Shown here piece by piece: positions 4,515-54,708 of a stretch of DNA of 64,000 nucleotides. Position 1 is the stretch's first letter. The number at the start of each line of letters is the position of its first letter. The stretch comes from Longimicrobiales bacterium (GTDB lineage: Bacteria; Gemmatimonadota; Gemmatimonadetes; Longimicrobiales; Gaopeijiaceae): positions 6,230 through 70,229 of the forward strand of contig CBDAON010000003.1 of assembly GCA_965198065.1 (NCBI GenBank). Reading direction: 5' to 3'. Both the position numbers and the translations under genes were made by a program. The notes beneath the pieces were generated by a model. It was not told the origin of the DNA. It worked only from the letters and a program-made list of their open reading frames with translations, and made no database searches.

Positions 4515-6731
4515 TCAGCGCGTCCGACGCTCCCGCCCCTCCTTCGCCAGGATCTCCGCGACCGCGTTCGGCGCCAGGGGCTGGGAGTAGTGGAACCCCT
4601 GCCCCTGGCCGCATTGGAGGCTCTGAAGCCTCTCCGACTGCTCGGCCGTCTCGATGCCCTCCGCTACGACGCCGATCCCGAGGTCTCTCGCGAGGGTGAT
4701 CACGGCCTGGATCAGGGCGGGCTGCTCGGCTGCCCCATCTATCTGTTGGATGAACGACCCGTCGATCTTCAACGTCGAAACGTGGAACCGCTTGAGGTAG
4801 GCGAGGGAGGACGTCCCGGTCCCGAAGTCGTAGATCTGAACGCGCACGCCGAGCTCCCGGAGGGTTCCGATCGTGACCGCGTTGGCGTCAGCCCGCTCCA
4901 TGAGGGCAGCCTCGCTGATCTCCAACTGCAGATTTCCGGGATCGAGCTCGGCCGCCTGGACGATCTGCGAGATTCGAGGCACGAGGTCCGGCTCCATGAG
5001 CTGGCGTCCCGACAGGTTCACACTAACCGTCGTGTCAGCCGCCCCGGGGAAGCTCCGGATCCAACCCGCCATCCGCTTGCTGGCTTCCTCGAGCACCCAC
5101 CAGCCCAGGGGCACGATGAGGCCCGTCCTGTCTGCCAGGGGGACGAACGCGTCGGGCTTGAGCTCCCCCCTCACGGGGTGATCCCACCGCACGAGCGCCT
5201 CGAGGCCCGTCACCCGCCCCGTGTCCAGCGCCACCACGGGCTGATAGACGAGGCGGAGCTGGCCCTTCTGCAGCGCGCTCTTCAGGTCGCCCTCCATCTG
5301 GAACAGGGCGACCGCCCGGGCATGCATGCTCCGGTCGTAGACCTCGAAGAGGCCGGCCCCCCGTGCCTTGGCCCGATACATGGCCGTATCCGCGAAGTGA
5401 ATCAACTCGTCGGGCGACGAAACCTCGTCGTCGCTGACCGCGATCCCGATGCTGGCGCTAGTCCGGACCGAGTGCCCCTCGATGTCGACCGGCCTCGCGA
5501 GCAGCTCCCGCACGCGCTCGGCCACCCGGGTCGTATCGGCCGAGTCCCGTAAGTCGTCGAGAAGGACGCAGAACTCGTCTCCCGCGACACGCGCCGCCAC
5601 GTCACCGGGACGGATCGCCTCCCGGAGCCGGCGGGCGACCTCGGCCAGGAGCTCGTCACCGGCCGCATGGCCCAGGGCGTCGTTTACCTCCTTGAAGCCG
5701 TCAAGGTCGAGGAACAGGAGGCCGAACCGGTACCCCTCGCGACGCTTGAGCTGCTGGAACGCCCGCTCGAGAAGATCCGCGAGGAACGCCCGGTTGGGTA
5801 ACCCCGTGAGCGAATCGTAGAGGGCCTCCTTGGCCAGGCGCTCCTCCACCGTCTTGCGCTCTGTGATGTCGGTGAGCGCGCCGGCGATGCGATAGGGGTG
5901 ACCTTCGGGGCTCCGCTCGGCGATTCCCCGAGCCTCGACCCATCGGTACTTCCCGGAGCCGTCAAGAACGCGATGCTCACACTGGAAGCGGGACGTCTCC
6001 CCGTCCCGGTGGGCTCGAAGCTCCGTCTTGAGGCGGGGCAGGTCCTCGGGGTGGACCCGGCTAAGCCAATGGTCCGGCGAGTTGCCGATCTGGTGCTCGC
6101 CGTACCCGAGCATCGACTTCCATCGAGCCGAGTAGAAAATCTCGCCGGCCTCGAGATTCCAGTCCCACAGCCCGTTGTCCGCACCGCGCATCGCGAGCGC
6201 GTAGCGCTCTTCGCTCGCCTGGAGCGCCCCCTCCGCTCTCCTGCGCTCTGTGATGTCCTCGCACGTGGTAACGATGCCGATCGGAGTTCCCGTCCGGTCG
6301 CGGAGCACGTCGGACATGAGGTGAACCGGGAACGAGCTCCCGCCCCGCCGCAGGTTCACGCTCTCCCGCCGCCACCGCTTCATCTTGGCGATCTCGTCCA
6401 GGGACATCGGCTTGGCTCGTGACGCGGACGCATAGACCCGAACGTCGGCGTTCAGGAGCTGCTCCTTCTGGTATCCGTGGTTGGCCGCGTCGGCCGGATT
6501 CACGTAGACGATGCGCCCCTCGAGGTCCGTGACGGTCACGCCGAGCTGCATCGTTTCGACGACCTGCTCGAGGTGGCGCAGCGACGGGGTCGCCTTGGAG
6601 TCGGGCTCCGTCAGCGGCAGCGCCGGAGACGGTTCCGTGGACGGCGGCGACCCGGACCTTCGGCCGAGGACGTAGCCGAGCGCAAGCGCGCTCGGGACCC
6701 CAACCAGAAGAAGAACTACGGGGAGAAGCAT
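4515..6731 (-). CDS. TM-PAS-PAS-GGDEF-EAL c-di-GMP signalling protein
   Basis: 738 aa. Two PAS-like blocks, GLPNRAFL..AGDEFCVLL (GGDEF domain), then EALVRW..YDFGTGTSSLAYLK..LKIDGSFI (EAL domain). Confidence 0.9.
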   Translation of the reverse strand: MLLPVVLLLVGVPSALALGYVLGRRSGSPPSTEPSPALPLTEPDSKATPSLRHLEQVVETMQLGVTVTDLEGRIVYVNPADAANHGYQKEQLLNADVRVYASASRAKPMSLDEIAKMKRWRRESVNLRRGGSSFPVHLMSDVLRDRTGTPIGIVTTCEDITERRRAEGALQASEERYALAMRGADNGLWDWNLEAGEIFYSARWKSMLGYGEHQIGNSPDHWLSRVHPEDLPRLKTELRAHRDGETSRFQCEHRVLDGSGKYRWVEARGIAERSPEGHPYRIAGALTDITERKTVEERLAKEALYDSLTGLPNRAFLADLLERAFQQLKRREGYRFGLLFLDLDGFKEVNDALGHAAGDELLAEVARRLREAIRPGDVAARVAGDEFCVLLDDLRDSADTTRVAERVRELLARPVDIEGHSVRTSASIGIAVSDDEVSSPDELIHFADTAMYRAKARGAGLFEVYDRSMHARAVALFQMEGDLKSALQKGQLRLVYQPVVALDTGRVTGLEALVRWDHPVRGELKPDAFVPLADRTGLIVPLGWWVLEEASKRMAGWIRSFPGAADTTVSVNLSGRQLMEPDLVPRISQIVQAAELDPGNLQLEISEAALMERADANAVTIGTLRELGVRVQIYDFGTGTSSLAYLKRFHVSTLKIDGSFIQQIDGAAEQPALIQAVITLARDLGIGVVAEGIETAEQSERLQSLQCGQGQGFHYSQPLAPNAVAEILAKEGRERRTR

Positions 6732-6894: not shown

Positions 6895-8043
6895 TCACCA
6901 GCTCACGCGCAGGCCCGCGATCCAGGAAACCCCGGAGTAGGTGCCGCCGTCGTCGAGATGGTCCCGCATATCCGCCCTCTGGACCCCGGTTTGCAACTTG
7001 AGGCTGTGTCCGAAAAAGTAGCGGTTCGCCCCGATGTAAACATCCTGGTAGCCATCCCCCCGCCCGGACACGACGCGGTTCTCGTAGCTCGGGACGCGCA
7101 CGCCGTTCGCGTCGTCGCTCCGGACGAGCGTGTAGCGGCCCACGAGCTGGAGCCTTGTCGTCAGGTCGAAGTACGGCATGACGACGACTCCCCAGAGATC
7201 ACTTTGGCCCAGATAGCCGAACCCCACGGATATGTCGCCTCGAGCTCCCCAACGCCCCGCTTCGAACCGGGCATTCAAAGATCCCACGTGCCGGAGGGCC
7301 CGCGTGAACGTGTTGTCCGAATCGGGAGACTGGTACAGGTAGCTGGCCCCCACGGAGGCCTCCTCCATCTCGAGGACCTCCGCCGCATCGTAGCCCAGAG
7401 AGGCAATCCCGAACACGCCGCCGCTGAAGTCTCCGAGCTCCCGGTTCCTCCGTCCCGACGAGAACGCGCCGACTTGATACGCCCAGCGAGAGCGCTCCAC
7501 CGAGAGGCTTACGCCTGGCATGTATTCCTGAGAGAACCACAGGTTATTGCTGAGATTGTTCCGCTCGGGCGTCAGAAGCTCGTTCGAGGATGTCGAGCCA
7601 TCTGTGGTGAACGACACACCCTGCTTCCCCAGCGTCACAGTCGTTCCCCCGGCCCGGCTCCATTCGATGTTCAGGTCGGTGAAACGCAGGTACAGGGGAT
7701 CCGCTTCCTGGGGGTTCAGGTCCACTTCCGCGTGAACGGTCAGCTGCCGAAGAACACCCGCACGGACGCCCAAGCGCAGGCGCCGAACGTTCCACTCGCG
7801 CTCCGACCCCTGATCAGCGTTCACCACCGCGTAATCCTGCTGGAAGCGGCCCTTGAAGAGGATGCTCTGAACGAACGGGTTCGTATCGTCGCGGTACCAC
7901 TCCCCAAGACGCCAGATTAGTTCGTAGATGGACTCCCCGGCCCCGGCCTGGGCCTGGGCCGGCTGACCGTGGAGCGTCCCCAGTCCCGTCAGGATCAACC
8001 CCTGGAGCATCCAGGTTCCCCGCCACGTGCCCGTCCCGCGCAT
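6895..8043 (-). CDS. Phosphate-selective porin O/P family outer-membrane protein
   Basis: Signal peptide with AQAQAGAG, alternating beta-strand pattern, aromatic C-terminus ..IAGLRVSW. Confidence 0.7.
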   Translation of the reverse strand: MRGTGTWRGTWMLQGLILTGLGTLHGQPAQAQAGAGESIYELIWRLGEWYRDDTNPFVQSILFKGRFQQDYAVVNADQGSEREWNVRRLRLGVRAGVLRQLTVHAEVDLNPQEADPLYLRFTDLNIEWSRAGGTTVTLGKQGVSFTTDGSTSSNELLTPERNNLSNNLWFSQEYMPGVSLSVERSRWAYQVGAFSSGRRNRELGDFSGGVFGIASLGYDAAEVLEMEEASVGASYLYQSPDSDNTFTRALRHVGSLNARFEAGRWGARGDISVGFGYLGQSDLWGVVVMPYFDLTTRLQLVGRYTLVRSDDANGVRVPSYENRVVSGRGDGYQDVYIGANRYFFGHSLKLQTGVQRADMRDHLDDGGTYSGVSWIAGLRVSW

Positions 8044-8097
8044 CGCACCTCCCTCTCTCAGACGATTGAGTCCGGGGCCCTGCCCTCACTTTATCCC

Positions 8098-8131
8098 GGA
8101 TGCGTAACGAACCGTTTCTCGGATACGTAAC
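8098..8131. promoter_or_regulatory. Direct repeat GGATGCGTAAC / GGATACGTAAC (starts 23 bp apart) in a divergent intergenic region
   Basis: Read directly at 8098-8108 and 8121-8131, between the porin O/P start (8043, minus) and the DUF3187-like start (8206, plus). Confidence 0.25.
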
Positions 8132-9459: not shown

Positions 9460-11892
9460 ATGGCCCAGTACCGGTTGATCGGAACCAGCCAGACCCCGAA
9501 GGACCTGCGCGCGAAGGTGACGGGGCGAGCGAAGTATGCAGAGGATTTCCGAGCGGACGGGATGGCGTTCGCGAAGCTCCTCCTGAGCCCGGTCCCCCGC
9601 GGGCGGGTGCGTCGCCTGGACGTGAGCCGTGCGCTCGCGATGCCGGGCGTCTTAGCGGTGCTCACGGCCGACGAGCTCAGTAGCGGGGGCGGGGGAGATG
9701 TGCCCGCCAGCGAATACCAGGGCGTGGAGCCGGTTCTGACCAACAACCCGCTTTACGTCGGACAGCCGATGGCGGCCGTGGCGGCCGAGAACGAGACCCT
9801 CGCCGCGGAGGCCGTAGCGGCCATCCAGCTGGATATGGAAAGGCTGCCGTTCGCACTGGATCCCCTGGACACGCTTCGGGAAGGTGGGCCGAACTCGCTA
9901 GAGGTCGGGAACGCGTACGCCAGCGGCGAGCTGGGCGAGGTGAAGTGGACGGCCGAGCAGATGGCCGCGCTCGAGGGTGAAACCTTCCCGGAGATCGACT
10001 TTCCGGGCCTTTCGGGCTGGGAGGTAGGGGACTGGCAAGCCGCCTTCGCGAACGCGGACTGGATCGTGGAGCAGCCCATCGTCCACCAATCGCAGACCCA
10101 TCACCCGATGGAGCCCAGGAGCGCGATGGCGTACTGGCAGAACGGGAGGTGCCACCTCCACTGCTCGGCGCAGAGCACGGCCAGGACCGCGGCCGGACAC
10201 GCCGCGCGCCTGGGGCTCGATCAGGAGGATCTGGTCCTCGTGGCCCAGTACTGCGGAGGCGGCTTCGGCAGCAAGGGAGCCGGATCGGTCACGGATGTGA
10301 TCCCCGCCCTCCTCGCCAGAAAGGCGGGACGGCCGGTGATGCTCCGCGTAACGCGCGACGAGGAAACGTATTTCGGCAGGGCGCGCGCAGGGATGGCCGG
10401 CTGGGTCAAGATGGGCTTCCGGACAGGCGGGCGACTGGTGGCGCTCGATCTCCTGCTGATCCAGGACGGCGGATCGTACGGACAGCGCGGGGACTTCCGG
10501 TCCGCCGCCTCCATCGCGTCCTTGGCCTATCAGCCCGAGACCATGCGGTTCCGGGGCATCTCTGTCGTCACCAACACGCCCCCTCGGGGCGCGCAGCGCG
10601 GTCCGGGAGGCGCCCAGAGCATCACGATGCTCGGTCCGGTGATGGACCGCGCGGCCCGGGAGATGGGCGTGGACCGGGCCGAGATCCTCTACCTGAATGC
10701 ACCTCCGGATCAGGCGACGTACCAGCCCGGGTCCAGCCGGGTCACGAGCGCCTACGTGAAGGAGGCGATCAAGCTGGGCCGGCAGCTGTTCCGCTGGGAG
10801 GAGAAGAAGGCCCTGAGCGGGCAGGTCAATGGCTCGAAGGTCACAGGGGTGGGGGTGGCCATCAGCCCCTACTCGGCGGGGAGCTCGGGGTACGACGGGC
10901 TCCTGATCATCCGCCCCGACGGGAGACTCACGATCCACACCGGGGTCGGGAACCTCGGCACGAGCTCTGTCTTCGACACGTCGATGGCCGCGGCCGAGGT
11001 ACTCGGGGTGCCGTGGGAGGAGGTGGAGGTCGTGTGGGGAGACTCGAGCCTCGGACTTCCCTGGAGCGCCATGCAGGTCGGGAGCCAGACGACCCACGCT
11101 CACACGCGGGCCAACTACGCCACCGGTCTCCGCGCCAAGCGTCTCCTCCAGGAAGTCGCGGCCCGGGATCTGGGCGGGCCACCCGAGAGCTACGAGCTGG
11201 GGGGCGGCCGCGTCTTCCGGAGTGGCGATGCTTCCGTCGGGATGACGTTCGCTCAGGCGGCGCGGCGGGCAATCGAGCTGGGCAGCCGCTACGACGGTCA
11301 CGAGCTTCCCGAGAGCCTGAACGAGATGACGGTGCGGGCCGTCGAGACGCATCTCGTGGGTCAGGGGCTCGTGGCGGCGGCGACCGACGAGTTCTCGCAC
11401 GAGGGCTCCAGCCGCTCGACCGTTGTGGCATTCGCGGTGGTGGACGTGGACCGGGAGACCGGTATGGTAGAGGTCCGGGAGCTCACGGCCGTGGCGGATT
11501 GCGGGACGGTCCTGAACCCGCGGAACCTCAAGGCTCAGGTGGGCGGTGGCGTGTTGCAGGGGATGAGCCAGGCCCGGTTCGAGACGTGGAGCTACGACCC
11601 TCGTTGGGGAGTCAACCAGAACCGGCGGCTCCATACGGCGAAGCCCATCACACTTCAGGACACGCCGCTCGAGTACGAGTTCGCCGCGGTGGACATCCCG
11701 GACCGCGAGAACCCGGTCGGATCCCGGGGGATCGGCGAGCCTCCGGTGGGCGCGGGCGCGGCGGTCGTGCTCTCGGCCATCTACGACGCGATCGGGGTCT
11801 ACCTCAATCGGACGCCGCTCACGCCAGACAAGATCCTGAACGCGCTGGAAGGCGGCTCACCCGGCTACACGTCGCTCCAGATGCACGTCTGA
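9460..11892 (+). CDS. Xanthine dehydrogenase/aldehyde oxidase family molybdopterin-binding large subunit
   Basis: 810 aa. LRAKVTGRAKYAEDF, QSQTHHPMEP, GGGFGSKG, and GIGEPPVGAGAAVV near the C-terminus. Confidence 0.9.
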   Translation: MAQYRLIGTSQTPKDLRAKVTGRAKYAEDFRADGMAFAKLLLSPVPRGRVRRLDVSRALAMPGVLAVLTADELSSGGGGDVPASEYQGVEPVLTNNPLYVGQPMAAVAAENETLAAEAVAAIQLDMERLPFALDPLDTLREGGPNSLEVGNAYASGELGEVKWTAEQMAALEGETFPEIDFPGLSGWEVGDWQAAFANADWIVEQPIVHQSQTHHPMEPRSAMAYWQNGRCHLHCSAQSTARTAAGHAARLGLDQEDLVLVAQYCGGGFGSKGAGSVTDVIPALLARKAGRPVMLRVTRDEETYFGRARAGMAGWVKMGFRTGGRLVALDLLLIQDGGSYGQRGDFRSAASIASLAYQPETMRFRGISVVTNTPPRGAQRGPGGAQSITMLGPVMDRAAREMGVDRAEILYLNAPPDQATYQPGSSRVTSAYVKEAIKLGRQLFRWEEKKALSGQVNGSKVTGVGVAISPYSAGSSGYDGLLIIRPDGRLTIHTGVGNLGTSSVFDTSMAAAEVLGVPWEEVEVVWGDSSLGLPWSAMQVGSQTTHAHTRANYATGLRAKRLLQEVAARDLGGPPESYELGGGRVFRSGDASVGMTFAQAARRAIELGSRYDGHELPESLNEMTVRAVETHLVGQGLVAAATDEFSHEGSSRSTVVAFAVVDVDRETGMVEVRELTAVADCGTVLNPRNLKAQVGGGVLQGMSQARFETWSYDPRWGVNQNRRLHTAKPITLQDTPLEYEFAAVDIPDRENPVGSRGIGEPPVGAGAAVVLSAIYDAIGVYLNRTPLTPDKILNALEGGSPGYTSLQMHV

Positions 11893-35452: not shown

Positions 35453-35594
35453 GCCCATCGCAGAGGGGCCGAACTACGGTAGGGTCAGGAGGTGGCGCGG
35501 TGCCCTTAGGGGTACGGTGTATATTTTGTCCGCCTTGCTTTCGCGGCGGTGCCAAGTCCGACTCCCATAGGTCCGTTTCCACCCCCTGCCCGTC

Positions 35595-35627
<33 letters not shown>

Positions 35628-35637
35628 TCAGTCGGGA

Positions 35638-37041
35638 TCACGCCTTCGCCCACGGAAGGTACCTGGTCGTCCGCGCAAGACACGTGAGGCCGCACTGCTC
35701 CCACAGCCACGTGTAGGGAAAGCGCACGTATTTCCCCGATCGCCCCTTGTGCTTCCGGCAGTACCACTGTCGTAGCCGCCAGGCGGCGTGCTGGTCCACA
35801 GCCCTGTATGCCGGATTGACTTGCCCGAGATTGAAGTAGTTTGCCCACCCCAACATCATCCGGTTCAGGCTCCCTACGACTTCCTCGGCATCCAGCCATT
35901 CACGCCTGCAGTCCGTCTGCTCGCTGATCCGGTGGCAGATGCTCTGAACGCTCGCCTTGCTCGGTCGAGTGCCGATGTACCGGCTTCCGTTCCCGGAACG
36001 ATAGTTCCAGCCGATGCGATACCCGAGAAACTCAAGCGGCTCCTCGGGGCACCGGAGGCATCGGGTCTTCTCTGCGTTGACCGGTAGCTTCAGCCTGTCC
36101 ATGAGCCGGTTGACCGCCGCCAGCATCTCCGCCGCCGAGGCCTTCCCGAGCACACAAAAATCGTCCGCATAATTCACGATCTCCGCACCGAAGCGCCGGG
36201 CGTAGCCCAGCACCTTCCAGCCAAGGATAAACCGCCGCATGTAAATGCTGCTCAGCAGCGGTGAGATCGGAGCTCCTTGCGGAGTCCCCTTTCTCTCCTT
36301 TCGCGCCCGGTTCGTGCGGCGAGTGCCGCCCTTGCCGTCCTCCTCTATCACCGGCATTTCCAGCCATGCCTTGATGAGTCCAAGCATCCGCCCGTCGCTC
36401 ACGCACCGAGCAATACTCTTCATCAACTCGGCATGCGGTATCTCACCGAAGTAGTTGGAGAGGTCCGCATCGACCACTTCGTTGTGGCCCCGGTACAGCA
36501 ACCCACGGATCCGCTGCACCGCGTCCTTCGCGCTTCGTCCCGGCCGGTATGCATACTGCTCCGGCTGCAGGTCCGCCTCGAATATCGGCACCAGCACCAG
36601 CAACGCCGACGTCTGCGCAACCCGATCCCTTAGGCACGGTATGCCCAGGGGACGGAACTTCCCCGGCTGCTTCTTCGGGATGAGCACCTGACGCACCGGA
36701 CTCGGCTCGTAGGCGCCATCCCTCAGGTCCCGCGACAGTTCCCCTACCCAACGCTCCACCCCGTATGCCTCGACGCCCGCGACCGTCACACCATCCACTC
36801 CTGCCGCTCCGCCGTTGCGCCGGACCATCCCCCACGCCTCCAGGAGGAGATCCTGCCTCCATACCTTGTCGACGAGGGCGTGAAAGCGCCGGTCAGGTTC
36901 TTCCTTCGCTTTCGCGTGTAGCACGTTCTGGAGTAGTTTCCGAACACTTCCTGCCGACCCTCTTAGACTCCCGTCAGTGGTCAAGTCCCTGCCTCCTTTC
37001 CGCACCGCTCCCAACTCAGGGCCCCTTCCCTCGACGGGCAT
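35638..37041 (-). CDS. Group II intron reverse transcriptase/maturase
   Basis: 467 aa. RT blocks (RRVLIPKKQPGKFRPLGIP, YADDFCVL) and maturase X tail (LNRMMLGWANYFNLG). No HNH/En domain is evident. Confidence 0.92.
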   Translation of the reverse strand: MPVEGRGPELGAVRKGGRDLTTDGSLRGSAGSVRKLLQNVLHAKAKEEPDRRFHALVDKVWRQDLLLEAWGMVRRNGGAAGVDGVTVAGVEAYGVERWVGELSRDLRDGAYEPSPVRQVLIPKKQPGKFRPLGIPCLRDRVAQTSALLVLVPIFEADLQPEQYAYRPGRSAKDAVQRIRGLLYRGHNEVVDADLSNYFGEIPHAELMKSIARCVSDGRMLGLIKAWLEMPVIEEDGKGGTRRTNRARKERKGTPQGAPISPLLSSIYMRRFILGWKVLGYARRFGAEIVNYADDFCVLGKASAAEMLAAVNRLMDRLKLPVNAEKTRCLRCPEEPLEFLGYRIGWNYRSGNGSRYIGTRPSKASVQSICHRISEQTDCRREWLDAEEVVGSLNRMMLGWANYFNLGQVNPAYRAVDQHAAWRLRQWYCRKHKGRSGKYVRFPYTWLWEQCGLTCLARTTRYLPWAKA

Positions 37042-37600
37042 TACCCCGCGTCCTCAGTAATACGGGCCCATCCGCCACCCTGTCGGCCCAGCCTGCCCCT
37101 CGCGGGGTCCCGGTTGCCGTGTGCACCGCACCGACAGGGCTTCCCGTGTTGCCACGCCTTCCATCTTCCGCATGTGCCGACGCCACTACCCCGGCGAAAA
37201 CCAGCCAGTGCTCGTGTCGCTCACTTCCCGGCCAGTCAGCGGCCTTCCCCTTTCTTGCGCAGGGTCGGCTTCCGCGTTGACGGTTTCGGGGCCTGCTCGG
37301 CGTTCACTGCACGTTTCGGCCCACGTGGTCGCTGAACCGCCTTCCGACTTAGCTCCTCCCTTGGCCGGATTGGCCGTTTCCAGTCGCGTGCCCGTTTAGG
37401 GAATCGCATATCGTGCGCGGCCCGTACCAGAGTGCTTCAGCTCATGTCGTTACCTTCATGCACCGCTCTGGCTACTACCGGCTGGAGCGACAGCTGCCGG
37501 GCGGGATTCGCACCCGCAAGGAAAGCGCGCCTTTCCACGGCGCACGCAAGTAATCGCATAAATCCAACTCGGGCCGTACGACATCCTGCCGCGTTTGAAC

Positions 37601-47510: not shown

Positions 47511-47879
47511 TTGCCCGCGACTTGGCGGAGACAGGCCAAGGCGCTCCGCCGGTACGGGGGCGAGACTCCGGCCGTGGCGCTCGAGAGTTGCGCGGCCGAG
47601 CTCGAGACCACGCTCCGGGAGCGGGACGAAACCACCCTCTCCCTGACGGAGGCCGCCAGGGAGAGCGGCTACTCCGCGGACCACCTCGGCCGTCTCGTCC
47701 GCGACGGTAAGATCCCTAACGTCGGAAGGCCCGGCGCGCCCAGGATCACCCGCAGGCACCTCCCCCGGAAGCGAATGGCCCAAGTGCCCGCCAATCCGCC
47801 GCTGGTCAAGAAGCCTTCCCCACGCCAGGTTTCAAACGCGCAGATCGTGCAGTCCATCATCGAGAGAGGAATCGAATGA
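47511..47879 (+). CDS. Excisionase-like HTH DNA-binding protein
   Basis: LSLTEAARESGYSADHLGRLVRDGKIPNVGRPGAPRI. Its stop overlaps the integrase start (ATGA). TTG start is uncertain. Confidence 0.55.
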   Translation: MPATWRRQAKALRRYGGETPAVALESCAAELETTLRERDETTLSLTEAARESGYSADHLGRLVRDGKIPNVGRPGAPRITRRHLPRKRMAQVPANPPLVKKPSPRQVSNAQIVQSIIERGIE

Positions 47880-49039
47880 TGGCACGCACGAAACGAAGCC
47901 GGCGCAGCTATGGCACCGGCGAATGGGGCCGGAACCGGGTACGGGTCTTCCCGGATCCCAAGACCGGCCTGTTCCAGATCGAGTGGCGCGAGCGTGGGCG
48001 CAGGCTGAGCCGGTCGCTCAAGCACCGCGACTGGGCTCGGGCGAAGAAGCAGGCGGACGAGCTTGCCGCAGGCTTCGCCGGGCCGGTGATGGAAGGCAAA
48101 GCGGAAGCCGAGCCCGAGCCGCTCACTCTGGAGACGCTTTTTGACATCTACGGTGAAGAGGTGACGCCCACCAAGCGTGGGCAGTCGCGGCTGCACGACA
48201 GGGCCGCGACGGGGATGTTCCTCGGTTGCTTCGGCAGGGACCGGAAGCCCGCAACGCTCTCCCAGCGCGACTGGGACCGGTTCATCCGAGAGCGTAGGGC
48301 GGGCAGGGTTGGCCCGAGCGGCAAGCTGGTATCCGACCGGATGATCGAACGGGACCTCAAGTTCCTGATCGCGGTCCTCAACTGGGCCGCAAAGTCCAGG
48401 GACGAGCAGGGCCGCCTGCTTTTGGAAGCGAATCCCCTGAGAGGACTGAAGACGCCCAAACAGAAGAACCCGGCCCGAATCGTCCTGGCCGAGGAGGAGT
48501 ACCAGGCGCTTCTACGGGTGTCCCGGCAGGTCGACTGGCGGTTCCGCGTCGCGCTCGTCCTCGCCCACGAGACGGGACACCGCATCGGCGCAATCCGCAA
48601 GCTCTGCTGGTCGGACATCGACATGGAGGGCAGAACCATCCGCTGGCGCGCCGAACACGAAAAGTCGGGCTATGAGCACCGGACACCGGTGACCGCCGAG
48701 GCGCTTGCCGCCCTGGAGGAGGTGCGAAAGAGGAATCCCGGTATCGGGCACGCGCCCGTGCTGCCCTCGCCGCAGGATCGCTCGAAGTGCGTGGGCTCCT
48801 GTCAGGCGTACGGGTGGTGGCACAAGGCGGAGGGGCTCGCGGGGCTTGAACCCAAGCGTGGGAGAGGCTGGCACTCCCTGAGACGAAAGTTCGCCTCCGA
48901 CCTCATGGACCAGCCGCTCAAGGTGCTCTGCGAACTCGGCGGCTGGAAGGAGGCCAAGACGGTGCTGCAGTGCTACCAGCGGGCCGACGAAGGGCAACTC
49001 CGGAAGGCCCTAGATCACCGCCGCAGAGTTCGCGCCTGA
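47876..49039 (+). CDS. Tyrosine recombinase/integrase, apparently intact
   Basis: 387 aa. AHETGHRIGAIRKLCWSDID, GWHSLRRKFASDL, LGGWKEAKTVLQCYQ (R..HxxR..Y layout). Confidence 0.85.
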   Translation: MMARTKRSRRSYGTGEWGRNRVRVFPDPKTGLFQIEWRERGRRLSRSLKHRDWARAKKQADELAAGFAGPVMEGKAEAEPEPLTLETLFDIYGEEVTPTKRGQSRLHDRAATGMFLGCFGRDRKPATLSQRDWDRFIRERRAGRVGPSGKLVSDRMIERDLKFLIAVLNWAAKSRDEQGRLLLEANPLRGLKTPKQKNPARIVLAEEEYQALLRVSRQVDWRFRVALVLAHETGHRIGAIRKLCWSDIDMEGRTIRWRAEHEKSGYEHRTPVTAEALAALEEVRKRNPGIGHAPVLPSPQDRSKCVGSCQAYGWWHKAEGLAGLEPKRGRGWHSLRRKFASDLMDQPLKVLCELGGWKEAKTVLQCYQRADEGQLRKALDHRRRVRA

Positions 49040-49047
49040 GCCCAATC

Positions 49048-49072
49048 AGCGGGAATCAAACGGCGGGAATCC
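49048..49072. repeat. GCGGGAATC motif pair
   Basis: AGCGGGAATCA 49048-49058 and GGCGGGAATCC 49062-49072, between the two convergent integrase genes. Confidence 0.5.
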
Positions 49073-49092
49073 AGTCCGAAATGCCCGTAAGT

Positions 49093-50259
49093 TTAATTAC
49101 CCCAAGCAGATGCAAACCTGTCGACTTCTGCCGCCTCGACCCTGTTCTGTACCACATGTGCGAGGGCCGCTTCGATGACCTCGCGGGGATGATCCGTTTC
49201 CTCGGCCGCCCAGTCCCGGAAACTGGACCTGAAACCGTGTGGAACGGCCGCGATCCCATGCTTCCGGAACATCCGGCGCAGTTGCTTCTCCTCGAGCTGC
49301 TTACCGACTCGATTGGGAAACAGATACGGACTGGTTCCCTTCACCAGCGTCCGTGCCCCGTCCAGAATCTCCAGTGCACGACCACACAGCGGGACCCGGT
49401 GCTCGCGGTTCGCCTTCGTCCGCCTGGCCGGGACAGTCCACACACCCTCGTCCCGATCAATCTCGGTCCACTCCGCCCACCGCACCTCACCCCATCGTGC
49501 CGCCGTCAGCACCAGGAACTCGAACGCCAGCCGGACGGCCAGCGGCACCGTTGATGCCCGCGCGGTCTGGATGGCCGCGGCCACCTCTCGATGCGGCAGC
49601 GCCCGCATGTGCTGCACGACGTCACGCTGGGGACCCAGGACCGGGTCGATCCGGTTACAGGGGTTGTCGATCCGGAACTCCATCGCCACCGCCCACTCCA
49701 ACACCGCGCGGATGCGCTGCCGCAACCGCCGGGCGGTGTCCGCCTTCGTGTGCCAGATGGGAGCGAGGATCTCCAGCACGTCGGCGCTAGTGACCTCCGA
49801 GACCGGCATCTTCCCGATGCGCGGGAAGGCGTACCGCTCGAAGGTCAAGATCCACTCGCGGCCGTGCACCCGACTTCGCCAGCCGGCTTGCTTCTGTTCT
49901 ACTACACGCGCGGTGGCTTCGGCGAAGCTCGGTACGCCCTGCCTACGACGCTTCTCGGCAAGCGGGTCGCCGCCCTAGCGGGCCAGCTTACGGTTGGCCA
50001 GCGCCTTTTCCCGGGCCTCGGCGAGGGAGACCAGCGCGACGCTGCCGAGCCCGAGCTCGCGGCGCCGACCCCGGATGACCAGGCGCTGAATCCAGCTTCG
50101 GGTTCCGCTTGGCTGGACGAAGAGGTACAAACCGTTGCCGTCCGCGTGTCTTCCAGGCGGGGCAGTGCGCACGAAGGCGGCCGACAGGGCCTTGTCTGGA
50201 TGGCGGCCCTTGGGCTTGGTTTTCCGCGGCGGAGTGGCCTTGTTCGTTACAGTAACCAT
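49093..50259 (-). pseudogene. P4-like integrase (DUF4102 arm-binding N-terminus) with in-frame TAG and altered 3' end
   Basis: ORFs 49975..50259 and 49093..49869 share one frame, separated by TAG (49975-49977): ..NRKLAR-TAG-GGDPLAEKRR. The body is intact (HGFRSSFRDWAAE) but the end reads VEAA-EVDRFASAWGN instead of the AY.R..WA.YL tail. Confidence 0.8.
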
Positions 50260-50407
50260 CCCCGCATAATATAGGGGATGGAGGCGGATATCAATGGATG
50301 TTGTGAGCGGAGTGCGTTGCTAGTCTATGCTCGTAACTTACTGTTATAAAAGTCAGTTATGGACTTAACTGCGAACTGTGTACTTGACGCAAATACGGAT
50401 ACCTTGA

Positions 50408-50827
50408 ATGGGTGACAGACCGGCGCATCCACAGGTTTGGGCAAGAGTGAACGCCCATGTAGATGAAGGTGTGGCGGATCTCATATCCGCCCTCTCAAGA
50501 TTCAAGGGCCTACGTACCCTCGAAAGCTGTCAGGGTGAGCCAGACGGTGCGGCCTGGGCATGCTTCGTGGTGGGAGCAAACGTGGGGTGGAGGCCGCTAG
50601 CGGATCTCGTGTTGGGTTACCTGGGACCGGCTTTGGCCTCAGACCTTGGAGACATGGTGGACCTTTCGATTCACGCTACGGAAGCGGGCGGGGCGCAGGG
50701 AGAACTCACGGTGCGCTCGGAAGCGATGAGCGACACCGTGAGCCTCCTGCTCACACTATCGGCTGATTGGCAGCCTAGAGCGGCTTACCAAACGTGCGAG
50801 TGTTCTTGTGACACGTCTTACACATAG
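50408..50827 (+). CDS. Hypothetical protein (transposon passenger)
   Basis: 139-aa ORF with no recognisable motifs. Its 3' end overlaps the convergent HNH gene by ~50 nt, so the true extent is uncertain. Confidence 0.35.
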   Translation: MGDRPAHPQVWARVNAHVDEGVADLISALSRFKGLRTLESCQGEPDGAAWACFVVGANVGWRPLADLVLGYLGPALASDLGDMVDLSIHATEAGGAQGELTVRSEAMSDTVSLLLTLSADWQPRAAYQTCECSCDTSYT

Positions 50828-51005
50828 CCAACAGGTTTCCGAGGCCGTCACCGCCACCGCGGGTGCGGTGGTGGGCATGCCAGTCGGAACCGTGCAACCC
50901 GTGCTTGCAACGACCAGTGTGGTGCGAGCACACCGACATGGTGCACTCGCAACGTCCGCCTGCACGAATAAAGAGAAGGCGTCGAGTATCATTGGAAACA
51001 GCCAT
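50775..51005 (-). CDS. Small HNH endonuclease-domain protein
   Basis: GGRCECTMSVCSHHTGRCKHGLHGSDWHAHHRTRGGGDGLGNLLAMCKTCHKN: Cys pairs plus an H..N..H pattern. Confidence 0.7.
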   Translation of the reverse strand: MAVSNDTRRLLFIRAGGRCECTMSVCSHHTGRCKHGLHGSDWHAHHRTRGGGDGLGNLLAMCKTCHKNTRTFGKPL

Positions 51006-51176
51006 TGTAATGCGTCCTCGATTTGGAAAATGAATGTGAATGAAAGCACGTTTCAAAACGCCTTCTTAAACGACGTTTTAAACGACGCATTAAATGGCGT
51101 TTTAAGAGCACTTTCTTTTCGTGATTCTTTTCCTCGACGCAATTACACGATATACTTTATCTGTAAATGCGTGAGG

Positions 51177-51279
51177 TGCGGACGGCCGGAGTCGAACCGA
51201 CACGGGGCGTCAAGGGTCCGAGAGAACCCGCCCCACCAGCTTCCAAAGCCAGCGTGTTTACCAGTTTCGCCACGTCCGC
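51177..51279 (-). tRNA. Atypical class II (Leu-like) tRNA, apparent anticodon UGG, 34-nt variable arm
   Basis: Hand fold: GCGGACG/CGTCCGC acceptor, UGGCGAAACUGGUAAACAC D-arm, CUGGC-UUUGGAA-GCUGG anticodon arm, long V-arm (GGGGCG/CGCCCC plus GGUUC/GGACC), GUCGG-UUCGACU-CCGGC T-arm, A73. CCA is not encoded. Confidence 0.6.
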
Positions 51280-51433
51280 CAAACGCCTGGGGGCAGCCTT
51301 ACGGCCACCCCCAGGAAGACCCCGGTTACGGGGTTAGGATTTTATGGCGGCATGGTGATCTCCTTTCTGGCGTGTCAGCGCCGGTTAGGGTGAGTGGTGC
51401 GCCCCCATCGTCGGAAACGGCGGTGGGGGTCTG

Positions 51434-51898
51434 CTATTCTAGTCCACCGATCTCCTCTTGCTGTGCACCTCCCGGCCTCGTCCATTCTCGGAGACCGTAT
51501 TCGCCGGTATCAACCCGAATGAACTGGCCACCCTCCTTGTGTGATCGTCGGAGCATAGCGCCGAGGCTGTTGGCTAACTTCCTTCGGCCTTTCGCATACG
51601 GAAGTCCACGCTTCAGTAATGCGTCGGCGATATCTCGTGGTTGCATCGGTTGGCGGACCTCAAGCAAGCAGGACTCAGCAACCCCCTGTAGGGTAAGGCG
51701 GGGATTACTGTACCGACCGCCGTTAATAGACGGGGGTGCCTCGGACGCCTCCTCGGTTATGGTAGCCGGTGCTTGCGCTTCGGGTTCGCTCAGGTACTCG
51801 AACAGTATCTCTCGCGTGTTGCGGAGCTTGCGGGCGCGAGCTTCGTGGAATTGGATATCGCGATCAAGTCGCTGGATTAGGTCCATGTCGCTGGGCAT
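51434..51898 (-). CDS. Winged-helix (HARE-HTH-like, tentative) DNA-binding protein with N-terminal coiled coil
   Basis: 154 aa. The C-terminal part PRDIADALLKRGLPYAKGRRKLANSLGAMLRRS..FIRVDTGEYGLREW resembles HARE-HTH/wHTH modules. Confidence 0.45.
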   Translation of the reverse strand: MPSDMDLIQRLDRDIQFHEARARKLRNTREILFEYLSEPEAQAPATITEEASEAPPSINGGRYSNPRLTLQGVAESCLLEVRQPMQPRDIADALLKRGLPYAKGRRKLANSLGAMLRRSHKEGGQFIRVDTGEYGLREWTRPGGAQQEEIGGLE

Positions 51899-52040
51899 GT
51901 TCGCATCCTACCCTAAAGGGGTTAATGTGACCGAAGTTAACGGCAGCGTGCGATCTTTGCTAGGGTGTAGTGAGGACAACGCGACGACAGGCCGATCTTG
52001 CTTGTGGAATCAGTGTTAATCGTATTATAGGAGGACCCAT

Positions 52041-52232
52041 ATGGAGGCCGAAGAAAAGCCGACACCGGACAATAAGAAAACCGGTCCTGACGCAGATCGC
52101 GTGAAGCTCGAAGGAGACTGGGAGGATGCGGTGAAGAAGGCCCTGAAAAAGAAAAAGCCCCCCGAGGGCTGGCCGCAGGAGGACGAGCAGAGCGGGGAGT
52201 CTGTCAGTGATTCAGGATCGGACAGAGACTGA
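52041..52232 (+). CDS. Small highly charged protein
   Basis: 63 aa, Lys/Glu/Asp-rich, strong AGGAGG 6 nt upstream of the ATG. It overlaps the DUF3800 3' end convergently. Confidence 0.4.
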   Translation: MEAEEKPTPDNKKTGPDADRVKLEGDWEDAVKKALKKKKPPEGWPQEDEQSGESVSDSGSDRD

Positions 52233-52964
52233 GTGCCAGCCACCTATCGAATGCGTGTGTGCCCTTACCACTGGCCCGAGTTGCTGGTCGAAGCGCTTAA
52301 ACCGGGGGTTGTTCATGCGCCTGTACCAGTAGATCGCTGCGATGGTTCTGCCGATACCGTCTGCCGCTTGAACCCCATGATACCACTCCGACGGTACGAG
52401 GAGGGGGATCTCTGTAACGCGAGCGTCGGCTGTCCGAAAAACAGGGTCCGAGTAAATAAGACTCTGAGCGGACGCAAGAACGCGCGTATTCTGAGTCTCG
52501 GTGCGGCGGTCCATTATCACCACCCCCCGGCCCACACGCGATCCTGCTTTGTCGTTAAGATATTTTTCAAACCTACGCAGTGTACTTTGCATGAGGCTGG
52601 TATAAAGCCCGGAGTAGGAGTGGTTCGCACGAGTAGAGTCTTTCTTGACTCCGTTTGCAAAAACGGCGCCACCGCACGAACCAACCAACCCGAGCACCTG
52701 AGATATAAAGCGGATGTCGCGTCGCGTTCTGAGCGTCTTCGCTTCAAAGCGTTCCGGGCGGATACCGTGCAAGGTCTTGGCGCGAGATATTTCCCTGCTA
52801 TAGAAACGACACTTCAAGCGGAAATAGGACCGGTCGAAGTCACGCCACCGTTCGCCAGGAATGACAAATCCCGCAAAACCGAAAAGCGGGTGGTGCTGGT
52901 GTCGCGGATCGGTGGGATCATAGGGGCCTGGATGACCGAATTCATCGAGGTAGAGAAGGTACAT
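52212..52964 (-). CDS. DUF3800 domain protein
   Basis: ATG 52964 gives MYLLYLDEFGH.., the DUF3800-type N-terminal acidic motif; ~250 aa, typical family length. Confidence 0.7.
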   Translation of the reverse strand: MYLLYLDEFGHPGPYDPTDPRHQHHPLFGFAGFVIPGERWRDFDRSYFRLKCRFYSREISRAKTLHGIRPERFEAKTLRTRRDIRFISQVLGLVGSCGGAVFANGVKKDSTRANHSYSGLYTSLMQSTLRRFEKYLNDKAGSRVGRGVVIMDRRTETQNTRVLASAQSLIYSDPVFRTADARVTEIPLLVPSEWYHGVQAADGIGRTIAAIYWYRRMNNPRFKRFDQQLGPVVRAHTHSIGGWHSVSVRS

Positions 52965-53155
52965 GGAGGCATGCCCCGGTACAAAATACACAGAGCCCGC
53001 GCCGAAGCGCGAGCCCTGGGGAACTGCTTGACCCAAGCATCCGGAGACACAAGGGCTGGCAGTATTACAACAGATTGCTATACACAGTATAGCCTGTCAA
53101 GGATCCCCTTTGAAGGACTCCTGGGTACTCCTGGGTACTCTGGGGGGAACTTGGT

Positions 53156-54136
53156 TCATGGATGACGATACATGAGCCGCTTCCCCTCGGAGCCCCGGAT
53201 AGCGGTCTTGATCCTTTCTCCGTCGTCAATCTTGCGAGTATTCCACCGAAACTCGAACTCGGACACGTAACGGTGCAGATGCTCTTTGCTGACGTGGTGG
53301 AAGGTCCCCATGACGCCCCTCTTGAGAAGGGCAAAGAACCCCTCAACGGTGTTCGTTGTGGCGAGCACGTCCCCGTCCATGCGTGCATACTCGTTCTGCG
53401 AGTGACGAACCGTGTGATGCCCGTTGGCAAACTCGCGTCCCACTGGTATGTAATGCCTGGCTTCGTCAGTATGGAGCCGAGCCGCTTCTGGGTCCACGTT
53501 CTCCCGAAGGTTGCTAGCGAGGTTCGCAGAGGTCACGTTCGTTACGACCTTGGCGCGCGCCTCTCCGTCCCGCTCGACGATGGCAATGACGGGCGTCTTG
53601 TTGTCCATACGGCGAAACCCACGCGGACGACGCTTCCCGCGCACCGAGCGGGGGCGGATTTTTCCACCGACGAAAGCTTCATCCGCCTCGACATCGCCAG
53701 TAAGTGGACCGCCCGTGTTGGCTGCACCATTCATCGCGTATCGGACCCGGTGCATGAGGAACAAGGCGCTCTTGTACGTGAGGCCGGTTTGCCGTTTGAT
53801 CTGCAAAGCGGACACGCCCTTCTTGCTGGAGCACGCCGCCCAAAACGCAAAGCACCAATGCCGCATGGGAATCCGGCTGTCCTCCATGATGGTTCCGATG
53901 CGGACCGTGAACTGACGGGCGCACCCACGGCACCGCCAGAGGTACCGGGCGTTCCGCTCACCGGTATTCCGATCCTTCATCATGTAGACATCGACATCGC
54001 CACAACGGGGGCACGACGGCTCCCCCTCCCAGCGCATGTCTTCGAGGAATTCGACCGCTGTGTCTTCGTCGGCACAGGCCATTGGGATGGCCCCGACGAT
54101 GTCCGATTTATCGCCCGCGATCTTCGACATTTTCAC
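53156..54136 (-). CDS. IS1595-family transposase (zinc ribbon plus DDE)
   Basis: CPRCG..WRCRGCARQFTVRIGTIMEDSRIPMRHW, SALQIKRQTGLTYKSALFLMHRVR, then the DDE region ..NTVEGFFALLKRG. Confidence 0.88.
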   Translation of the reverse strand: MKMSKIAGDKSDIVGAIPMACADEDTAVEFLEDMRWEGEPSCPRCGDVDVYMMKDRNTGERNARYLWRCRGCARQFTVRIGTIMEDSRIPMRHWCFAFWAACSSKKGVSALQIKRQTGLTYKSALFLMHRVRYAMNGAANTGGPLTGDVEADEAFVGGKIRPRSVRGKRRPRGFRRMDNKTPVIAIVERDGEARAKVVTNVTSANLASNLRENVDPEAARLHTDEARHYIPVGREFANGHHTVRHSQNEYARMDGDVLATTNTVEGFFALLKRGVMGTFHHVSKEHLHRYVSEFEFRWNTRKIDDGERIKTAIRGSEGKRLMYRHP

Positions 54137-54254
54137 TCACCTTTGGAGGCTTGAATTCACACTCTAAAGATAAGGGATGTACGTGTTTGCGTCAAGTATC
54201 TAGTTCCGACTTAACTGGACGATACTGTACACCGGTCCAGATAGTCTGCCCATT

Positions 54255-54708
54255 CCTGGGTCGTGCGTGGCTGCCCGAGCACCCGGCACGCTCTCCTCTC
54301 CGACGCCCCGAGCTGCTGACGTACACGCACCACACAACGTCGTCGGCCCTCGGGGCTCAGAAGTTTCCCTTGGCCGCTTCCTCCACGATCAGCTTGTCCA
54401 GTGTCAAGTCCGCCACTGCTCGCTTCAGGCGCCCGTTCTCGCGCTCGAGCTCCTTCAGGCGCCGTGCCTGGCTCACCTTCATCCCGCCGTACTCCCGCCT
54501 CCACCGGTAGTACGTCTGCTCGGTGATGCCGAGCTCCCCCCTGATCAGCTTCACGGATTTGCCGCCGGCCAGACCGACCTCTGCCTCCCGCACTGCAGTG
54601 ATGATCTGCTCCGGAGTGTGTCGCTTCCTTCCCATCCTGACCTCCTCGCTGAAAAGCTTCGGACCAGGTCGATCCTAACATTGCACCTGGTCTCGTTTCA
54701 GCGGGTCA
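54255..54708 (-). mobile_element. IS3-family element, copy 1, truncated within orfB
   Basis: The left end TGACCCGCTGAAACGAGACCAGG (rc of 54686-54708) matches copy 2 at 62757. Homology to copy 2 stops near 54255 after ..ACRVLGQPRTTQ. Confidence 0.8.
54357..54635 (-). CDS. IS3-family transposase OrfA (HTH)
   Basis: MGRKRHTPEQIITAVREAE..EQTYYRWRREYGGMKVSQARRLKELERENGRLKRAVADLTLDK. Confidence 0.85.
   Translation of the reverse strand: MGRKRHTPEQIITAVREAEVGLAGGKSVKLIRGELGITEQTYYRWRREYGGMKVSQARRLKELERENGRLKRAVADLTLDKLIVEEAAKGNF

Follow-up and report, generated by a model that had tools for sequence, protein, structure and literature searches.

The 64,000-nucleotide (nt) stretch of DNA analysed here, referred to below as the window, comes from contig CBDAON010000003.1 of a Longimicrobiales bacterium and contains, at 50371..54208 (3,838 bp), one intact and recently mobile transposon of the IS1595 family of insertion sequences (ISs). 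The element belongs to a clade whose core comprises a transposase, a basic protein of ~50 amino acids (aa) and a type-II transfer RNA (tRNA) that combines the body of a tRNA-Leu with the anticodon UGG, and the transposase genes of this clade favour the proline codon CCA at a few positions, termed sentinel codons in the following. Which codon stands at these positions tracks both the presence and the anticodon of the tRNA, a covariation for which decoding of the sentinel codons by the tRNA on the ribosome is hard to avoid as an explanation, and we strongly infer that such decoding takes place. To our knowledge, such a coupling between a tRNA and codons is new. Taken as a whole, an intact mobile transposon with a three-part clade core, whose tRNA would read sentinel CCA codons, is the explanation that we regard as likely.

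The element is bounded by imperfect terminal inverted repeats (IRs) of 23 nt, whose arms, read from the outside inwards, match at 18 of 23 positions (GCGAACTGTGTACTTGACGCAAA at 50371-50393 and CGGAACTAGATACTTGACGCAAA at 54208-54186). Their 13-nt core, TACTTGACGCAAA, has exactly two occurrences in the window, in inverted orientation (50381-50393 and 54186-54198), and the octamer that adjoins both arms, ACTTAACT, likewise occurs exactly twice in the 64 kb, for a chance expectation of ~0.31. The literal direct repeat is 10 bp long (GACTTAACTG), with a chance G on both sides of each octamer; the duplication is taken as 8 bp because this is the register shared with ~55 relatives, which have ends of the form CGGAAGT... 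and exact 8-bp duplications. Before the insertion, the empty site (TTATGGACTTAACTGGACGATAC) would read ...TTATGG-ACTTAACT-GGACGA.... The G + C content is 0.573 within the element, whereas the adjoining 5 kb have 0.662 on the left side and 0.624 on the right. Elsewhere in the window, the best match to either arm reaches at most 15 of 23 positions, and none lies near 53100. A sequence-only reading of this DNA had proposed IS1595-type ends with an 18/23 IR enclosing 3.8 kb, a perfect 8-bp target duplication, no second end close to the transposase gene and a lower G + C content inside; all of these proposals hold, with both ends lying where they had been placed, and every enclosed feature that it had listed is present at the position given for it.

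That reading had also suggested a search for further copies of the whole 3.8-kb unit with different flanks, and locus L083 is such a copy. This locus, which was found via its exact copy of the small open reading frame (ORF) and comes from a different metagenome, contains the whole element at 99.4% identity, DUF3800 gene included, between flanks unrelated to those in the window and with a duplication matching at seven of eight positions (GAGGAACA/GAGAAACA). Its transposase gene is split by a 1.6-kb IS (4740-6357) of rve type (IS3-like) with a short ATGCC duplication; the L083 copy is dead through this insertion, while the D stem of its tRNA is intact. Locus L001 shares the gene order of the window element without DUF3800 (transposase identity 89% for protein and ~85% for DNA; duplication CGTTTCTG), locus L002 encodes a transposase that is 78% identical (duplication CACAATAT), and L168/L169 have the duplication ACATTTTT. 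The sequences flanking the L001 element (5129-5902 and ~9810-10583) are related to each other in inverted orientation, one matching L083 758-1529 on one strand and the other matching it on the opposite strand. The distal flank of L001 is also homologous to a flank of L083, and the copies may share an ancestral site within a larger repeated structure.

The family matches more than 1,100 loci, and the counts given here rest on 160 that were retrieved, in one set of 80 genome loci and another of 80 independent metagenome loci. A script seeking an IR pair beside an identical octamer was applied to the 80 genome loci, which had been collected with a transposase profile, and to two close relatives; an IR pair with an exact 8-bp duplication was found in 56 loci, every duplication having a different sequence. 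The clade consensus for the IR is CGGAAGTATGTACTTnACGCAA, and element lengths range from 1.7 to 4.6 kb, always exceeding the transposase gene alone. Members of the clade are found in Planctomycetota, Gemmatimonadota, Acidobacteriota, Myxococcota, Proteobacteria and other phyla. One metagenome-assembled genome (CAWAWB01) contains two different members (L023 and L072), one with a tRNA and CCA at codon 18 of the transposase gene, the other with no tRNA and CCG.

Assignment to the IS1595 family follows from the combination of terminal IRs, an 8-bp direct duplication and a transposase with a zinc ribbon (Zn_ribbon_IS1595, PF12760; E = 2e-11) and an ISXO2-like DDE domain (DDE_Tnp_IS1595, PF12762; E = 1.6e-35), which scores 182 bits against the NCBIfam model for IS1595 (NF033547; cut-off 75). 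The best annotated relatives on plasmids share no more than 42% identity and bear just the name 'IS1595 family transposase'. The probable start codon is an ATG at 54130, giving a protein of 324 aa that is 100% identical to protein P0133, although an exact-sequence look-up of the window transposase returned no recorded gene position. A composite transposon was considered and ruled out, there being one transposase gene, one IR pair and no second copy in the window. The behaviour of L083, in which genes not concerned with transposition (DUF3800 among them) have moved together with the IRs, is that of a transporter IS or unit transposon.

Clustering of the ORFs from 57 complete elements yielded, besides the transposase, one general protein family. 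It consists of small basic proteins (45-60 aa) with the motif GPxPxRLKIEGDWxxAVKKALxKKKPxxGWP, is present in 53 of these elements and is usually encoded directly downstream of the transposase gene. A Leu-like tRNA(UGG) lies inside the IRs in 41 of the 57, and hence belongs to the element rather than being a neighbouring host gene. A tRNA(UGG) within 3 kb was found for 105 of 160 distinct transposase genes (in two cases with an 8-nt anticodon loop); in two further ones the tRNA has the anticodon AGG or GGG, and many of the remainder lie on short contigs. The earlier count of six passenger features therefore stands in part: the 139-aa ORF and the HNH, HARE-HTH and DUF3800 genes do vary, and are lineage-specific passengers of the sub-lineage to which the window element belongs, whereas the tRNA and the small charged ORF, in view of these frequencies, are part of the core.

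The tRNA gene of the window has a Leu-like body, a variable arm of 31-33 nt, A73 and the anticodon loop UUUGGAA, and scores 41.4 bits with the Rfam tRNA model (gathering threshold 29) and 77 bits with a covariance model of the clade. ARAGORN, whose limit on variable-arm length accounts for the miss, reported no tRNA in the window; at 43 genome loci, it reports an 84-99-nt 'tRNA-Pro(TGG)' beside the transposase gene. When 44 element tRNAs are aligned, they form a cloverleaf with a long variable arm and with compensatory changes in 22 of 24 pairs, and the clade model, which was built from this alignment, also recovers forms with variable arms of 29-44 nt that ARAGORN misses. The 80 independent metagenome loci gave the same result. 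Judged by its sequence, the element tRNA is real and under selection. The window copy has a C11-A24 mismatch in its 3-bp D stem, a single G-to-A difference from the copy in L083.

Recognition by leucyl-tRNA synthetase (LeuRS) depends on A73, U8-A14, contacts of G18/G19 with the T loop and the way the variable arm is oriented (PMC2377443; PMC9976931). Across 104 unique element tRNAs, all with the anticodon UGG, A73 is present in 104, U8 in 101, A14 in 101 and GG in the D loop in 98, and the variable arm spans 13-44 nt. With the clade model, host tRNA-Leu(CAG/UAG) genes from the same loci and the element tRNAs reach equally high scores, and the loop CUUGGGA, which several members have, differs by a single transition from CUUAGGA, the loop of host tRNA-Leu(UAG). 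Compared with a canonical tRNA-Leu, the element tRNAs thus have the LeuRS identity set but no Leu anticodon (NAG/NAA); compared with a canonical bacterial tRNA-Pro, just the anticodon and A73 fit. The determinants for prolyl-tRNA synthetase (ProRS) are G35, G36 and A73, with G72 rated strong, and U73 is incompatible with this enzyme (PMC9976931); of the 104 element tRNAs, 79 have G:C as their 1:72 pair and 19 have C:G. Nor do they have the 8/4 or 9/3 acceptor branch of an allo-tRNA: in the consensus, the acceptor stem has 7 bp and the T stem 5 bp, and U8 of the window tRNA is unable to extend the acceptor helix.

Within this common plan there is some variation. At position 33, where U is near-universal, sixteen of the 104 tRNAs carry C; at position 37, 64 carry A and 39 carry G; and the tRNAs of L013 and L058 have 8-nt anticodon loops like those of frameshift-suppressor tRNAs. 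In L044 (7961-8036) and L110 (5861-5935) the usual position is taken by a tRNA(UGG) of type I, with a short variable loop, and that of L044 has U73; both elements keep CCA at codon 18 all the same, and it is the anticodon, not the body, that is invariant across these variants. With respect to the transposase gene, the tRNA most often lies downstream in convergent orientation (59 loci, at a median of 48 nt past the stop codon) or just upstream on the same strand (25 loci); the layout in the window, downstream on the same strand with passengers between, is the rarest (8 loci). Some elements encode further tRNAs. In L081, the UGG tRNA is adjoined by another (8021-8105) whose body is of the same Leu-like kind (84 bits with the clade model) and whose anticodon, UGA, is for a Ser codon. 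A second type-II tRNA with the anticodon UUA, and so resembling an ochre suppressor, occurs in L002 (8259-8350), L009 (8168-8257), L012 (9203-9295) and L085 (1325-1416), with G73 in L002 and L009 and A73 in L012; no in-frame TAA or obvious read-through extension was found in the transposase genes of the elements with UUA tRNAs.

The codon usage of the transposase genes matches the anticodon UGG. CCA accounts for 32% of the Pro codons in 56 transposase genes and for 13% in flanking host ORFs, a 2.4-fold rise to be set against just 1.2-1.6-fold for the NNA codons of Ala, Thr, Gly, Val and Ser, although CTA is also up 2.5-fold and CGA is down. In the first set, CCA is used at P18 (motif [IL]-P-x-A-C) in 44 of 55 genes and at P326 (near-C-terminal motif Y-[RK]-[ED]-P-[VI]) in 26 of 30, the latter counted on MAFFT alignments as hmmalign misplaced the C-terminal column; several positions in linkers are CCA-rich as well. 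By contrast, at the conserved prolines P40, P43, P90, P160 and P182, CCA is used in 1-4 of 40-50 Pro codons each, which is below the host background. The independent metagenome set gives the same picture, with CCA in 46 of 49 at P18, in 35 of 37 at P326 and in 13 of ~170 at the structural prolines. In a scan for codon-specific conservation over all alignment columns, P326 ranked first and P18 third; the second rank was taken by the R320 column (window ~53177-53179) in a G-K-R-L motif, with the Arg codon CGG in 34 of 55. The window transposase has CCA at positions 18, 144, 216, 231 and 326 and other Pro codons at 40, 43, 90, 162, 171 and 182. Synonymous sites of the codons neighbouring codon 18 vary freely, so that the signal is the codon itself, and no extended complementarity between the messenger RNA (mRNA) and the anticodon loop was found around it.

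The codon also varies with the tRNA. In complete elements with tRNA(UGG), P18 is encoded by CCA in 38 of 41 and by CCT in 3; of 14 complete elements with no tRNA, 6 have CCA there and the others CCG, CCC or CCT (Fisher p = 2.8e-4, kinship ignored). Pooled over both sets with duplicates removed, codon 18 is CCA in 96 of 101 genes with the tRNA and in 31 of 50 without. The tRNA-less elements with other codons are spread over many lineages, and their nearest relatives have the tRNA together with CCA. Where the anticodon is different, so is the codon: L160/L162 (AGG) and L073 (GGG) have CCT at both sentinel sites, whereas their nearest relatives combine UGG with CCA. In the outgroup IS1595 element from a Mesorhizobium plasmid (42% identity), which has no tRNA, the N-terminus could not be aligned at position 18.

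Most likely, then, the element tRNA reads the sentinel CCA codons, namely codon 18, the near-C-terminal codon and several linker codons, whereas structurally essential prolines use CCG or CCC, read by host tRNAs. In the model that we favour, the tRNA would insert Leu at the sentinel codons in competition with host tRNA-Pro(UGG), functional transposase would vary in ratio or amount with the expression of the element tRNA, and the tie between the two could act as a private switch or as feedback on copy number. Leucine is proposed because the full LeuRS identity set is kept. A residue other than proline is further suggested by the avoidance of CCA at structural prolines, by the location of P18 within a confidently predicted helix (residues 12-22), by C72 in 79 of 104 tRNAs, G72 being a strong determinant for ProRS, by the U73 of the type-I tRNA in L044, and by the restriction of Leu codons in the P326 column to L010, L097 and L105, three elements with no detected tRNA. 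Wholesale recoding, in which Pro would replace conserved Leu, was rejected, there being no Pro in eight conserved Leu columns of the transposase.

Several observations weigh against this proposal. The tRNA has the ProRS determinants G35, G36 and A73, and C1-G72 in 19 of 104, so prolylation is possible; where the tRNA is absent, codon 18 stays a Pro codon (CCG, CCC or CCT) and is never Leu, which argues for Pro being acceptable or required there; and, as host tRNA-Pro(UGG) would compete for CCA, any recoding would be partial. As to the coupling, CCA is kept at codon 18 in 31 of the 50 elements with no detected tRNA, although many of these lie on short contigs and their tRNA may be off the end; the codon statistics ignore kinship, and the covariation of codon with anticodon amounts to two events. 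The small core protein has no codon specificity comparable to that of the transposase, and the window's own copy of the tRNA may be weakened by its D-stem mismatch. On balance, whether leucine is what the tRNA carries, or proline is at any rate not its sole amino acid, so that the sentinel codons would be recoded or ambiguously decoded, appears to us an even call. The broader proposition, that a widespread IS1595 clade encodes a private missense-decoding tRNA that would act on the CCA codons of its own transposase for self-regulation, is put forward more tentatively, as one that may well be wrong.

A rather unlikely but substantive alternative is that the tRNA is a private supply of tRNA-Pro that gates translation: charged by ProRS, it would decode CCA, a rare codon, at gate positions, and transposase output would follow the level of the element tRNA with no change in protein sequence. 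This would account for an anticodon that always falls in the Pro box (UGG, AGG or GGG), for the Pro codons that tRNA-less elements retain at position 18 and for the choice of CCA, a minority codon in hosts (13%); the avoidance of CCA elsewhere could then reflect avoidance of additional slow codons, and the ProRS determinants (PMC9976931) and the C1-G72 minority noted above would find a ready explanation. For such a gate, however, an ordinary captured tRNA-Pro would suffice, yet a Leu-type body with all LeuRS determinants is conserved across phyla; G72, a strong ProRS determinant, is missing from the 79 tRNAs with C72; hosts normally own a tRNA-Pro(UGG), which would make the gate leaky; and both the U73 of L044 and the restriction of Leu in the P326 column to elements with no detected tRNA fit it poorly.

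The remaining alternatives dispense with decoding or with the element itself. There is a small chance that the RNA has a non-translational role, as a signal for RNase P/Z, as transcription punctuation, as an integration target for islands or as a scaffold for protein. The upstream same-strand and convergent layouts (25 and 59 loci) would suit processing or antisense effects, and some allo-tRNA-like genes near mobile elements are translationally inactive (PMC5389517); a processing signal, however, needs no invariant anticodon, A73 or LeuRS core, there is no extended complementarity around codon 18, and conservation of the third codon base and the anticodon-codon switches would be left unexplained. 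We give very little credence to the idea that the tRNA is an ordinary passenger, captured by chance and with no functional link to transposition. Its variable position and orientation among elements, and the unrelated passenger genes known from other IS1595-family elements (PMC3129680), would be in keeping with this, but more than 100 elements from many phyla, with transposases only 52-60% identical, share this unusual type of tRNA and its anticodon, compensatory changes maintain the tRNA structure, and its anticodon covaries with the transposase codons. Least credible of all, to the point of being practically dismissed, is that 50371..54208 is not one transposon but a ~1.1-kb IS beside unrelated island DNA. 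The surrounding island is indeed full of integrase and IS remnants; but there is no second IR near 53100 and so no such IS, a 99.4%-identical copy of the entire 3.8-kb unit stands between other flanks, and in every relative the ends enclose more than the transposase gene.

Table 1 Features of the transposon and of its boundaries, in window coordinates
Feature	Position	Strand	Remarks
Left target-site duplication, ACTTAACT	50363..50370	.	Octamer adjoins distal IR directly
Distal terminal IR, GCGAACTGTGTACTTGACGCAAA	50371..50393	+	18/23 match to other end
139-aa ORF, lineage-specific passenger	50408..50827	+	No family match
HNH-type nuclease-like ORF, 93 aa	50775..51056	-	Weak matches and motifs
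12-nt periodic repeat, AAACGnCGTTTT, ~4 units	51056..51103	.	Between HNH gene and tRNA
Core tRNA gene, type II, anticodon UGG	51177..51279	-	Rfam tRNA, 41.4 bits
HARE-HTH (winged-helix) protein, 154 aa	51434..51898	-	PF05066, 29.4 bits (cut-off 25.9)
Small core protein, 63 aa	52041..52232	+	Homologues in 53/57 complete elements
DUF3800 protein, passenger	52212..53036	-	PF12686, 36 bits (cut-off 21)
IS1595-family transposase	53156..54136	-	PF12760 and PF12762; NCBIfam NF033547
Second sentinel codon CCA, Pro326	53159..53161	-	Last codon in window copy
Sentinel codon CCA, transposase Pro18	54083..54085	-	CCA in 96/101 tRNA(UGG)-bearing relatives
Promoter-like site into transposase gene	54167..54195	-	Consensus scan, pattern match only
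Transposase-proximal terminal IR, CGGAACTAGATACTTGACGCAAA (minus-strand reading)	54186..54208	-	
Right target-site duplication copy, ACTTAACT	54209..54216	.	

Among the other features of the element (Table 1), the promoter-like site, a pattern match, has a -35 hexamer, TTGACG, that coincides with the conserved IR core, with TATCTT 17 nt further in. The small core protein of the window, with the motif GPxxDRxKxEGDWxDAVKKALKKKKPPEGWP, matches no family in Pfam, NCBIfam or PADLOC, and a homologue search returned six unnamed proteins. The DUF3800 gene (probable ATG start at 52964) is present in the window and in L083 and absent from L001, and is a recently acquired passenger; the HARE-HTH gene is confined to the closest relatives, L001, L083 and L168. 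The HNH-type ORF carries CxxC...HH...CxxCH motifs, has weak matches to the HNH region of IscB (E = 0.0015) and to endonuclease effectors in PADLOC (E = 0.0012), and is present in 3 of the 57 complete elements. For the 139-aa ORF, searches of Pfam, NCBIfam and PADLOC returned nothing, and homologues were found only in L001 and L083. The AAACGnCGTTTT repeat array is partly palindromic, and a protein-binding array is conceivable.

The element sits in an integrase-rich island (47876-50259 region) that is common to L001 but rearranged there. The island includes a tyrosine integrase gene (47876-49039, plus strand; 86% nucleotide identity to L001 11214-12523) and a split P4-type integrase gene on the minus strand (49093-49869 and 49975-50259), the 5' end of which lies ~110 bp from the left duplication. 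On the other side, a minus-strand IS3-family remnant (54217-54681), consisting of orfA (54357-54635) followed by ~45 codons of orfB, ends exactly at the right duplication; as the target duplication is intact, this remnant must have been truncated before the IS1595 element inserted. Elsewhere in the window, group II intron RNA domains at 35479-37519 on the minus strand (Rfam group-II-D1D4-4, 51 bits; Intron_gpII, 46 bits) point to another mobile element.

The sequence-only reading knew of no description of a tRNA gene carried by an IS1595-type element, and none was found in the full-text literature: searches for IS1595 together with tRNA, for transposon-encoded or mistranslating tRNAs and for Pro-to-Leu decoding yielded no description in open full text, as distinct from ISfinder and the subscription literature. 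If the coupling is real, this would be, as far as we know, the first IS family with an integral tRNA and the first mobile element that keeps a dedicated tRNA-codon pair for its own transposase, and there is a substantial chance of a new regulatory principle. It would provide a natural system of sense-codon recoding or of tRNA-gated expression, a new route by which transposons could sense their own copy number or activity, and candidate parts for genetic-code engineering; if the missense reading is correct, hosts would, as a side effect, face Pro-to-Leu mistranslation of CCA codons across their proteomes. More than 100 natural tRNAs with a Leu body and a Pro anticodon are missed by standard tools or labelled tRNA-Pro, and this treatment of hybrid tRNAs bears on how genomes are annotated and on how translational fidelity is estimated for bacteria of soils and sediments.

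Elements of the IS1595 family that carry passengers, called transporter ISs, were already known (PMC3129680, citing Siguier et al. 2009). The present clade resembles them in its transposase of IS1595 type with Zn-ribbon and DDE domains, its IRs, its 8-bp duplication and the extra genes between the IRs; it differs in that the passengers described so far are unrelated to transposition, whereas the present clade has conserved a small protein together with a tRNA that is codon-coupled to the transposase. Hybrid-identity tRNAs, too, are known, in the form of allo-tRNAs and the irregular tRNAs of Acidobacteria-like metagenomes (PMC5389517; PMC7609411) and of tRNA-ProX in Streptomyces (PMC11415595). 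Allo-tRNAs, which have an 8/4 or 9/3 geometry of acceptor and T stem and mostly Ser identity (Mukai et al. 2017, PMC5389517), share with the element tRNAs a long variable arm, a mismatch between anticodon and identity and an origin in soil and sediment metagenomes (Acidobacteria and others); some of them have toxin-antitoxin systems or transposon-related genes close by, and a role as missense or nonsense suppressors has been proposed for them (PMC5389517). The element tRNAs, however, have the canonical 7/5 geometry, a tRNA-Leu body and A73, and the allo-tRNA study reports no link to IS1595, no UGG class and no target codons (PMC5389517). The Streptomyces pair of tRNA-ProX and ProRSx (PMC11415595) is similar in that the identity of the body and the anticodon disagree and a sense codon is decoded deliberately or ambiguously. 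A hybrid-identity tRNA that would be an integral part of an IS, or that would have its target codons in a transposase gene, is not among these cases.

With a canonical tRNA-Leu, the element tRNAs have in common the type-II form, the 3-bp D stem, U8-A14, G18G19, A73 and equal covariance-model scores; they depart from it in the anticodon UGG, one transition from UAG, and in a variable arm that often measures 29-44 nt. Natural mistranslating tRNAs in which body and anticodon are mismatched include the nev-tRNAs of nematodes and the tRNA-Ser(CAG) of Candida, but these, like the Streptomyces tRNA-ProX, are chromosomal and act proteome-wide, whereas the element tRNA is borne by a transposon and has its putative targets in the gene for its own transposase. 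Phage-encoded tRNAs, finally, provide a precedent for a mobile element that brings a tRNA matched to the codons of its own genes; they are canonical isoacceptors, which compensate for codon usage or evade tRNA nucleases, and lack both the hybrid identity and the match to just one or two sentinel codons.

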